The position numbers and the translations under genes were made by a program. From positions 1-60,904 of IMG/VR virus record IMGVR_UViG_3300029778_000003: a stretch of 60,904 bases of DNA. One strand, given 5' to 3'. Under the pieces are notes generated by a model. It searched no databases and was not told the DNA's origin. It was given only the letters and a program-made list of their open reading frames with translations. The stretch comes from a virus. This document shows, one piece after another, positions 59,641 through 60,904 of this stretch (positions within the stretch are counted from its first letter, which is position 1; each line of letters starts with the position of its first letter).

Positions 59641-60627
59641 ATGAATTTTGACAATTACTCTTGTGATAATCAAATGAGCATATTTGACTTCACAAGAGAA
59701 CCAATTAGCATAACAAAGCCTATCCGCTTGATAGAATTATTTGCCGGCCACGGCAGTCAGGCAATGGCACTAAAGAGAATAGGCGCTAAATTTGAGCATT
59801 ACAGAGTTGTGGAGTTTGATAAGTATGCCATAGCAAGCTATAACGCAGTGCATGGCACAGATTTTCCTACAATGGATATAACTAAGGTTCATGCAGAAGA
59901 TTTGAATATCTGCGACACAAATGCATTCACTTACTTACTTACTTACTCATTCCCTTGTACGGATTTATCAGTTGCCGGAAAACAAGCCGGAATGTCTAAG
60001 GGCAGCGGTACAAGAAGCGGTCTGTTGTGGGAAGTTGAGAGAATACTAACAGAAATCAGAGATAGCAACGGAGAATTGCCACAGATTTTATTCATGGAGA
60101 ACGTGCCACAAGTACATAGTCAGGATAATATGCCCGACTTTAGAAAGTGGCTAGATTTCCTTGAAAGCCTTGGCTACACAAATTACTATCAAGACTTGAA
60201 TGCTAAAAATTATGGTGTAGCACAAAATCGTGAAAGATGCTTTATGTTTTCATTCCTAGGTGAGTACAATTATCATTTTCCACAGCCTATACCACTCAAA
60301 AAGAAGCTGAAAGACTATCTTGAGGATAATGTAGATGAAAAGTATTACATCAACAATGAAAAGGCTGACAAGCTGATAAAACAGCTTATTGACAACGGCA
60401 CATTACCACAACACAATCTTGACAGACAGACAGACAGACAGACAGACAGACAGACAGACAGACAGACAGACAGGCAGACTTGTGTTGACGGAACAATCAA
60501 TAAGCCACAGCAGAGAGAAGTTGCAAACTGTATCAAGGCAAGATATGACTGTGGAATATCAAACTTGCGGTCAGAGGGAAACTTGGCTGTTAAAGGATAT
60601 GGGAGAGACAGCAGAAAAACAGATTGA
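59641..60627 (+). CDS. DNA (cytosine-5) methyltransferase, N-terminal catalytic segment (motifs I-VIII), (DRQT)5 linker and first TRD-like module; frame then breaks
   Basis: ELFAGHGSQ (I), SFPCTDLSVAG (IV, catalytic Cys), FMENVPQ (VI), AQNRERCFMFS (VIII), then ANCIKARYDCGISN. Continues in other frames to 60904 and on to 1-799. Confidence 0.88.
   Translation: MNFDNYSCDNQMSIFDFTREPISITKPIRLIELFAGHGSQAMALKRIGAKFEHYRVVEFDKYAIASYNAVHGTDFPTMDITKVHAEDLNICDTNAFTYLLTYSFPCTDLSVAGKQAGMSKGSGTRSGLLWEVERILTEIRDSNGELPQILFMENVPQVHSQDNMPDFRKWLDFLESLGYTNYYQDLNAKNYGVAQNRERCFMFSFLGEYNYHFPQPIPLKKKLKDYLEDNVDEKYYINNEKADKLIKQLIDNGTLPQHNLDRQTDRQTDRQTDRQTDRQTCVDGTINKPQQREVANCIKARYDCGISNLRSEGNLAVKGYGRDSRKTD
60421..60472 (+). 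repeat. Tetranucleotide microsatellite (GACA)13 inside the C5 methyltransferase ORF
   Basis: Counted by hand. Followed by imperfect ggca gact. Currently in frame, encoding DRQT x5. Confidence 0.95.
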
Positions 60628-60709
60628 TGTAGCCGCAACTCTTAGGGCAAGAGATTATAAAGGCCTTGATAATTATGGAAGTAATGGAGTAATTGAATGG
60701 AAAAACTAA
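60598..60709 (+). CDS. C5 methyltransferase fragment in the +1 frame (second TRD-like module)
   Basis: KDMGETAEKQIDVAATLRARDYKGLDNYGSNGVIEWKN stop. Only the 3' part of ORF 60389..60709 looks like real coding sequence. Confidence 0.6.
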
Positions 60710-60801
60710 CAGATGCTATCGGAATAGTGCTTTTTGAAAGCAAAAAATTCGGTGGCGAAAAGGTACTTAGGGGGGGGGATTTGCCCTACCCTAAGAGCCA
60801 A
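60697..60801 (+). CDS. C5 methyltransferase fragment (third frame segment) ending after the G9 tract
   Basis: MEKLTDAIGIVLFESKKFGGEKVLRGGDLPYPKSQ stop. With G9 read as G8 it would read VLRGGICPTLRANKTSSGVIEV... Confidence 0.5.
60770..60778 (+). repeat. Homopolymeric G9 tract inside the C5 methyltransferase gene
   Basis: cttaGGGGGGGGGattt, counted by hand. Confidence 0.9.
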
Positions 60802-60904
60802 TAAAACAAGTAGCGGAGTGATTGAAGTAATGGTAGATGTAAATGTAATAGGCTCTCTTGAATCAAAATTTGAGAGTACCAACAGAATTTATGATGTGGG
60901 GGGG
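60782..60904. repeat. Second copy of the terminal overlap (equals 1-123)
   Basis: Identical by direct comparison. The window ends inside the poly-G run. Confidence 0.93.

Follow-up and report, generated by a model that had tools for sequence, protein, structure and literature searches.

A C5 methyltransferase gene spread over several reading frames

The window analyzed here is the whole of IMG/VR virus record IMGVR_UViG_3300029778_000003 (60,904 nucleotides, nt), in which a gene for a C5 methyltransferase runs from an ATG at 59641 to window position 799. The two ends of the window are identical over 123 nt (1-123 = 60782-60904). This terminal repeat is the assembly overlap of a circular sequence with a unique circle of 60781 nt, and the methyltransferase gene therefore crosses the circular junction, as a first-pass annotation made from the sequence alone had proposed. 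That annotation had also counted four frame changes along the recognizable methyltransferase sequence, and a frame analysis from ATG 59641 finds each of them where it had been placed. Relative to this ATG, the sequence reads in frame 0 until a stop at 60625-60627, in frame +1 over 60596-60709, again in frame 0 from an ATG at 60697, in frame +1 past a run of nine Gs (G9) and in frame +2 past a run of eight (G8). A single frame is restored by the removal of one nucleotide near 60595 and the addition of one A to the A5 run at 60701-60705, together with a change of G9 to G8 (or G11) and of G8 to G7 (or G10).

With the four corrections the protein reads continuously, as predicted, over 645 amino acids (aa) and matches PF00145 at both ends (E=5e-58); the closest solved structures to the joined protein are those of M.MpeI and M.HhaI. 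The C5 methyltransferase motifs follow one another in canonical order: FAGHGS (I), FPCTD (IV), ENV (VI), QNRER (VIII), RKLTPRE (IX) and GNSIV (X). Motifs I-VIII and motifs IX-X lie on two adjacent or overlapping open reading frames (ORFs) split inside the variable region, the N-terminal ORF covering profile positions 2-227 (E=6e-48) and the C-terminal ORF positions 236-322. The variable region between motifs VIII and IX is about 330 aa long and divisible into seven modules of 34-49 aa, with cores that are TLxARxYKG-like or G-x-(S/C)-P-T-L-like, and modules are present or absent independently among relatives. As a C5 enzyme with small phage ORFs, an excisionase and an integrase as neighbors, the protein does not belong with the Type III Mod methyltransferases, and its separate ORFs in the window set it apart from the single-polypeptide multispecific enzymes of the SPR/phi3T type.

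Repeat tracts and their states in the window

Four simple repeats lie within the gene (Table 1): (ACTT)4, or R0; (GACA)13, or R1; and the two G tracts, G1 and G2. The first-pass annotation had singled out the G tracts as unusual, and they are indeed the sole G or C runs of at least 7 nt in the window, which otherwise holds one G6 and no C run of 6 nt or more. GGGGGGGG is expected 0.21 times from dinucleotide shuffles and is seen at two loci, a count that none of 100 shuffles reached.

The (GACA)n tract has no stop in any of its three frames, and DRQT is read in every one of them. Downstream of it, frame a leads through module T1 to a stop, frame b through a spacer and module T2 to a stop, and frame c to an immediate stop. 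The G1 tract is in frame at 8 nt (or 5 or 11). At 7 nt (or 10) the G2 tract joins module 3 to the rest of the gene; a length of 8 nt instead brings an ATGATG at 110-115 into phase with what lies downstream.

In the window (ACTT)4 is in frame and (GACA)13 sets T1 in phase, leaving a 328-aa N-terminal cistron intact. T2 is untranslated in this allele; loss of one unit from the (GACA) tract would bring it into the reading frame. G9 ends the second cistron after 35 aa and cuts off module 2, and an ORF restarting at the module 3 ATG (60830, equivalent to window 49) runs only to a stop at window 159, since G8 puts it out of phase. One G fewer in both tracts would give a fully connected allele. The suggestion of the first-pass annotation that the locus is OFF in this consensus is therefore too simple: G9 is out of frame as it implied, but the N-terminal cistron is intact and the 229-aa ORF with motifs IX and X is open.

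Table 1. Features of the methyltransferase locus and two other genes of the window
Feature	Position	Strand	Remarks
N-terminal cistron, 328 aa	59641..60627	+	Motifs I-VIII, DRQT linker from (GACA)13, module T1; TGA at 60625-60627
Switch R0, (ACTT)4	59929..59947	+	19 nt, period 4; encodes TYLLTY just before the catalytic FPC; in frame
Switch R1, (GACA)13	60421..60473	+	53 nt, period 4; DRQT repeats; brings catalytic domain and T1 (frame a) into phase
Module T1 (CVDGTINKPQQREVANCIKARYDCGISNLRSEGNLAVK)	60481..60594	+	Codes in frame a; the same DNA is stop-free in frame b as spacer to T2
One-base shift from T1 (frame a) to T2 (frame b)	60595	+	First of the four frame changes
Module T2 (DMGETAEKQIDVAATLRARDYKGLDNYGSNGVIEWKN)	60596..60709	+	Frame b (= a+1); stop TAA at 60707-60709
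Second-cistron start	60686..60699	+	GGAG 60686-60689, 7-nt spacer, ATG 60697; overlaps the T2-frame stop (ATGgaaaaacTAA)
Second cistron in the window allele	60697..60804	+	MEKLTDAIGIVLFESKKFGGEKVLRGG; out of frame past G9, stop after 35 aa
Switch G1, G9	60770..60778	+	Gly-Gly before the ICPTL core of module 2; out of frame here (OFF)
Possible internal start of module 3 (MVDVNVIG...)	60815..60832	+	GGAG, 11-nt spacer, ATG 60830 (= window 49)
Switch G2, G8	117..124	+	Gly-Gly before the CSPTL core of module 3; partial copy at 60898-60904
C-terminal ORF, 229 aa from ATG 110	110..799	+	Rest of module 3, modules 4-6, motifs IX and X
Integrase	1667-2854	+	
RtcB-like RNA ligase gene	17098-18450		Directly upstream of the large terminase gene; PHROG 1075, E=2.5e-128

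Tract lengths in near-identical genes and in the wider family

A small neighboring gene (777-953) led to ten independent ENA assemblies with a collinear methyltransferase gene, which differ from the window by 0.10-0.94% substitutions. When the 11 near-identical genes are aligned over 1.9 kb, all indel columns fall into four blocks, at 59929, 60421, 60770 and 117. The (ACTT) tract measures 15 or 19 nt, the (GACA) tract 23-53 nt, G1 6-9 nt and G2 6-10 nt, and the combination of tract alleles is distinct in 11/11 genes. One gene (L243), for instance, has only 2 substitutions relative to the window over 1932 nt, but three of its tracts differ. Both G tracts that had been listed as switches are thus hypervariable, but the other two listed positions, 60595 and the A5 run, are without indels in the ten near-identical genes, and the list lacked a third and a fourth switch, (GACA)n and (ACTT)n.

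As judged from reading frames only, the N-terminal ORF is 134, 271-279 or 316-354 aa long and the C-terminal ORF 220-293 aa, depending on tract state. The 15-nt (ACTT) allele, found in 3/10 of the near-identical genes, cuts the N-terminal ORF to 134 aa. One allele with G8 and G7 (L240) has clean cistrons of 320 and 293 aa, the second running to motif X, and it is this connected state that the window would attain by the loss of one G from each tract. The commonest near-isogenic state is G6/G7, for which gene callers start a 249-aa C-terminal ORF at ATG 60830 = 49; such genes are called from the module 3 ATG in L238, L241, L242, L245 and L246. An exact look-up of the 328-aa N-terminal ORF gave no match, and those of the C-terminal ORF and the neighboring gene did give loci.

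We found 416 relatives in IMG/VR. Nearly all have a repeat where R1 lies, about 780 nt into the gene. In most it is (GACA)4-23, in others (AGAGC)n, (AGCAG)n or 8-mers, and the (GACA) copy number ranges from 4 to 23 even among genes at least 99% identical over the upstream 780 nt. Relatives also carry an (ACTT)/(TTAC) tract and G tracts. Conservation of the G tracts among orthologues, which the first-pass annotation had left to comparison, holds for their presence at both positions and not for their length, which is 5-10 nt. Among IMG/VR contigs with exact flanks, G1 is G6 in 12, G7 in 5, G8 in 8 and G9 in 2, and G2 is G6 in 6, G7 in about 22, G8 in about 10, G9 in 3 and interrupted in 7; some interrupted G2 tracts, such as AAGGGAA, retain an in-frame length. 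The GenBank phages collected in INPHARED hold one relative only, Dulem virus 39, whose enzyme is intact, repeat-free and 527 aa long and which was used solely as an outgroup.

A first family sample, ranked by tblastn with the frame-corrected protein, over-represents one frame, with R1 states at 39:32:9. Ranking by the N-terminal domain alone gives near-even states (A 16, B 29, C 21), and we claim no selection on the R1 state. Assembled copy numbers also have a ceiling. Within the (GACA)/(AGAGC) array end 13/80 IMG/VR contigs, and one ends within G2; many contigs (L104, L111, L139, L141, L167, L173, L176 and others) stop exactly 55 nt into the array, so the real arrays in these contigs measure 55 nt or more, and the k-mer size caps the copy numbers assembled.

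Conserved frame offsets and a second cistron

The frame changes at 60595 and at the A5 run are of a different kind from the G tracts. Motif anchors, including the T1 anchor ...NCIKARYDCGISN... and the T2 motif ...TLRARDYKG...GVIEWKN*, were located in each of the three frames in 130 unique genes. The T1-to-T2 offset is +1 in 83/84 unique genes, and the offset from T2 to the second ATG (of MEKL... or MEVI...) is -1 in 67/70. Ahead of the second cistron GGAGT[GA]ATTGA-ATG is conserved, with the ATG overlapping the T2 stop, and the A5 run sits within this overlap of start region and stop. The offsets and the GGAG start are kept even between the divergent MEKL-type and MEVI-type variants. Given this conservation, the breaks at 60595 and at A5/TAA (60701-60709) belong to the family and did not arise by mutation in this genome. 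They are frame offsets built into the gene, the first a stagger between T1 and T2 and the second a cistron boundary with its own ribosome-binding site and ATG.

The two-cistron layout is the rule among relatives. The first ORF of nearly every relative ends at codons 310-360, and the part with motifs IX and X is a separate ORF in about 95% of unique genes and fused to the N-terminal part in about 5/104. The same layout occurs without repeats in L085, a 141-kb Roseburia contig from a metagenome-assembled genome (MAG), and in L097. Fused single chains pass through T2 in L003 (597 aa) and L137 and through T1 in L053 (552 aa) and Dulem virus 39, and since each is found in intact single-chain relatives, T1 and T2 are both genuine modules, presumably for target recognition.

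Among unique variants of the T1 DNA, 78/78 lack stops in frame a and 76/78 lack them in frame b, whereas frame c has 2-6 stops; amino-acid constraint is seen only in frame a. A codon-shuffle estimate puts the chance of a stop-free +1 frame in T1 at 3-9%, which makes the open frame b supportive but not decisive. A single-substitution test for stop avoidance in frame b proved invalid, as divergent sequences have multi-base codon changes, and frame b was judged instead by direct stop counts, codon-level counts and the codon-shuffle estimate.

Selection on the modules, and explanations without switching

In its own frame, and only there, each segment of the gene varies with a bias toward synonymous differences, and it is free of stops in that frame. 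The synonymous share of codon differences is 0.51 for T1, 0.54 for T2, 0.85 for the start of the C-terminal cistron, 0.65 for the segment from G1 to G2 and 0.77 for the next, and in the other frames of any segment it is 0-0.25. For the C-terminal 669 nt, dN/dS against L003, L006 and L056 is 0.07-0.23. These patterns agree with the use of all parts of the gene over evolutionary time and do not match a pseudogene or a mis-assembled single ORF.

Gene decay had been one of the options of the first-pass annotation, and it would make the locus a plain pseudogene in which an ancestral single-chain multispecific methyltransferase, now functionless, is falling apart by frameshifts. Repeat-free single-chain relatives do exist (Dulem virus 39, L086), most alleles are disconnected somewhere, and a few relatives have odd deletions, such as one of 7 nt in L011. 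Every module, however, is stop-free and synonymous-biased across the 130 unique genes, with the low dN/dS given above; indels in near-identical genes are confined to the repeat tracts; the offsets and the second start persist across both N-terminal types of the second cistron; and long perfect repeats, some with as many as 23 units, are retained without erosion. With each module under purifying selection in its own frame, decay is very unlikely.

Alternatively, the frames could be joined in expression, by ribosomal frameshifting at 60592-60595 (AAA-G), at 60700-60706 (G-AAA-AAC) and on the G runs, or by transcriptional slippage. What is generally known of frameshift sites lends this some appeal: AAA-G permits +1 re-pairing of tRNA-Lys, G-AAA-AAC followed by TAA resembles the slippery site A-AAA-AAC, and long G runs let tRNA-Gly re-pair in any frame. 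The junctions are not conserved, however. MEVI-type genes have GAA-TGG-AAG-TAA-TAG, which holds no slippery run, other T1/T2 junctions differ, and the conserved element is instead the GGAG-N7-ATG start. Variation of tract length between isolates would moreover be pointless if expression ignored frame. We consider recoding extremely unlikely. Because the junctions lack conservation, two candidates were rejected as the main route: programmed frameshifting, whether at 60592-60595 or at 60700-60706, and a bypass like that of gene 60 over the stretch that separates T2 from module 2. Slippage at a low level on G8-G9 might render OFF states leaky; as the principal route it is excluded.

Least likely of all is that the gene is one continuous ORF and its breaks are consensus mistakes, which the first-pass annotation had also raised: homopolymers and contig ends are error-prone, the window contig ends on the seventh G of the second tract, and many related contigs end inside the (GACA) tract, where assemblers evidently struggle, but two of the four breaks are away from long homopolymers and recur identically in 83/84 and 67/70 relatives, the ten further assemblies spread the G tracts over 6-10 nt with zero indels elsewhere in 1.9 kb, a single continuous ORF is found in only about 5/104 relatives, and other window genes are intact, even those with A7-A8 or T7-T8 runs. 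An independent assembler reproduced both tracts: a Logan assembly of SRR5057112 that begins to match the window at 60445, passes the junction and stays 100% identical as far as about 2949 (about 3.3 kb) has the same G9 and G8, and consensus error is unlikely for this reason. The rest of the window likewise consists of tightly packed plus-strand genes with long, intact ORFs, and the assembly is therefore not generally error-ridden. The position of the contig end, on the seventh G of the tract at 117-124 that is partly copied at 60898-60904, might be read as a sign of read heterogeneity; this reading was downgraded, as the Logan contig passes both G tracts and as, given the 123-nt overlap, the end of the contig fixes where it starts.

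A probable multi-switch contingency locus

In the reading that we consider likely, a temperate phage of Lachnospiraceae carries a split C5 methyltransferase with multiple modules, and the gene for it is a hypermutable contingency locus with several switches. The first-pass annotation had put forward such a locus as one of its options, and the confinement of all indels of near-identical genes to repeat tracts supports it. This reading builds on what the sequences directly display: repeat tracts that are hypervariable, frame offsets that are fixed, and selection that acts on each module. As is characteristic of contingency loci, the unit length of the repeats is not divisible by three, tract length varies among close relatives far above the background of indels and substitutions, and, at the level of reading frames, it alters the product.

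In the mechanism that we propose, the methyltransferase would comprise about seven tandem recognition modules, encoded as a family norm by two cistrons. The N-terminal cistron would supply the catalytic motifs I-VIII and end in T1 or T2; the C-terminal cistron would supply modules 2-6 and motifs IX-X from its own GGAG and the ATG that overlaps the T2 stop. Four in-gene simple repeats would change length, each resetting the reading frame. The (ACTT)n tract would act just ahead of the catalytic cysteine, the (GACA)n linker, translatable in all frames, would bring the catalytic domain into phase with T1, with T2 or with an early stop, and the two poly-G tracts would act directly before the CPTL/SPTL cores of modules 2 and 3. 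Replication slippage is assumed as the mutational mechanism, in line with the general behavior of simple repeats. By analogy with M.AquI and with fragment complementation, the two cistrons would assemble into an active enzyme. We infer that the switch is a means of bet-hedging between the evasion of ordinary and of methylation-dependent restriction, or of altering the methylome of the lysogen.

Several observations weigh against this reading. The fully connected state is rare, being found in 1/11 near-identical alleles (L240), and the commonest length of G1, G6, is out of frame; such a pattern fits a gene that is mostly off or a logic more complex than ON/OFF. Each contig is a majority consensus, so that the variation seen is variation between assemblies, and the Logan contig, unbroken through both G tracts, does not indicate marked heterogeneity in its sample. 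ATG 110, the start of the C-terminal ORF in the window, lies behind no good ribosome-binding site. Finally, complementation of M.SssI fragments suggests that the small domain (recognition domain plus motif IX) belongs on one chain (PMC3404938), which puts in question a function of T1 or T2 on the N-terminal subunit.

A variant of the contingency reading, possible but less likely than not, is that the locus is a combinatorial specificity switch rather than an ON/OFF switch, with the tracts choosing the modules attached to each subunit. The (GACA)n tract would then pick T1, T2 (in the +1 frame) or neither for the catalytic subunit, and each poly-G tract would join its module (2 or 3) to the subunit with motifs IX-X or detach it. 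Where a tract is out of frame, translation would restart at the next GGAG-ATG, at 60697, at 60830 (= 49) or possibly at 110. If this is true, one gene gives the phage population many methylation patterns, with hedging motif by motif between the two kinds of restriction and a lysogen methylome that varies.

The phage and its host

The phage is in all probability temperate and siphovirus-like, with a gut Lachnospiraceae host. MAGs with the methyltransferase gene are mostly Lachnospiraceae, Roseburia among them, and besides its integrase the window encodes a large terminase subunit, a portal protein, a major head protein and a 1266-aa tape-measure protein. An integrated copy in Logan contig L236 matches the window identically to about 2949 and then continues into a host NTP-transferase gene, which places attP at about 2950-2990, just downstream of the integrase. 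Repeats of GTGTGTAGTAA at 2847-2867 and 3080-3101 flank the attachment site. Close relatives with a different, 376-aa integrase adjoin a host YchF GTPase gene.

Other features of the window were noted in passing. The RtcB-like ligase may counter tRNA-cleaving defenses of the host. An ORF at 45523-46662 (379 aa, with tail-fiber-like PHROG hits) contains a tandem array at 45882-46419 with a 27-nt unit in 19.9 copies (95% matches), an in-frame 9-aa repeat that may vary in length between phages. Iteron-like repeats at 53985-54130 (an 11-nt unit x 4.8 and a 15-nt unit x 5.4) lie within a DnaD-like helicase-loader gene (53638-54423) and are probably the replication origin. The region 7830-13300 has few ORFs of at least 70 aa and carries AT-rich short tandem repeats at 8847-9346, 10210-10260 and 10794-10836; it may be a regulatory or lysogeny-control region.

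Comparison with known systems

C5 enzymes made of two subunits occur naturally in M.AquI and M.EcoHK31I, and fragments of M.HhaI, M.BspRI, M.BsuRI and M.SssI complement one another when the protein is split between motif VIII and the recognition domain (PMC3404938). As in M.AquI and M.EcoHK31I, motifs I-VIII, along with a portion of the variable region, are on one polypeptide here and the remainder with motifs IX-X on another. Unlike enzymes of the M.AquI type, the present one is known from genes alone, and its repeat tracts would alter what each subunit contains. We know of no split C5 enzyme in which repeat tracts change subunit content.

Phase-variable regulons (phasevarions) depend on Type III mod genes in Haemophilus, Neisseria, Helicobacter and Moraxella and on Type I hsdM/hsdS genes that bear simple sequence repeats (PMC7383803). 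They share with the present locus repeats inside a methyltransferase ORF whose unit (tetranucleotide, pentanucleotide or poly-G) is of a length other than a multiple of 3, with a tract length that differs between close relatives and sets the frame. Phasevarion enzymes, however, are N6-adenine methyltransferases encoded on bacterial chromosomes, in which as a rule a single tract close to the 5' end gives ON/OFF behavior, whereas this is a phage C5 enzyme with four tracts, three of them inside the recognition region, and with frame staggers and a second cistron.

Contingency loci in phages have been claimed for the A runs of T2/T4 agt and rIIA (Gomez, Barrick and Waters, bioRxiv 2025, PMC12633550). 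Like agt, the present gene is a phage DNA-modification gene with a slippage-prone repeat, and bet-hedging between restriction of modified and of unmodified DNA has been proposed there too (PMC12633550). The T2/T4 loci consist of A runs of 6-9 nt in virulent coliphages and switch between null and revertant states; here tetranucleotide arrays of up to 23 units and two G tracts are found in a temperate gut phage, and the frame architecture looks as if built around the repeats.

The multispecific C5 methyltransferases of the Bacillus phages SPR, phi3T, rho11s, SPbeta and H2, with their inactive 'pseudo-domains', are familiar from the Trautner/Noyer-Weidner literature. Between motifs VIII and IX they have several recognition modules in tandem, each about 40-50 aa long, which are shuffled or deleted between relatives. 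The module alignment of the present gene resembles this layout, but the Bacillus phage enzymes are single polypeptides without repeats or staggers, unlike the mostly two-cistron genes with modules in different frames described here. In NgoAV of Neisseria gonorrhoeae a poly-G tract in hsdS drives truncation and a change of specificity. Here, as there, a homopolymer inside the specificity region would change the recognition domains in the product; NgoAV is of a different enzyme class and has a single tract. To our knowledge, a choice between two alternative modules in staggered frames has no earlier description.

We found no description of a repeat-switched phage C5 methyltransferase in the open-access literature. 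New, apparently, are the number of switches, their position in the recognition region and the all-frame linker that would choose between staggered modules, and apparently also the G tracts before the CPTL/SPTL cores of successive modules, each with a possible start of its own.

Significance

Phase-variable methyltransferases are a major theme in bacterial pathogens, and contingency loci in phages were first claimed in the 2025 preprint, for short A runs only. The locus described here is an elaborate example of such a contingency system that looks purpose-built. It is widespread in temperate phages of the abundant Lachnospiraceae of the human gut, with more than 400 IMG/VR contigs, and the neighboring gene is indexed in 487 blocks of a public assembly collection. 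Because gene callers fragment the gene differently in each sample and assemblies often break at its tracts, annotation pipelines will mislabel it as a pseudogene. The family offers protein engineering a natural system of split, modular C5 methyltransferases, and the locus opens to test how a phage population diversifies its own methylation, its host range in the face of restriction and anti-methylation defenses, and the epigenome of its lysogens.

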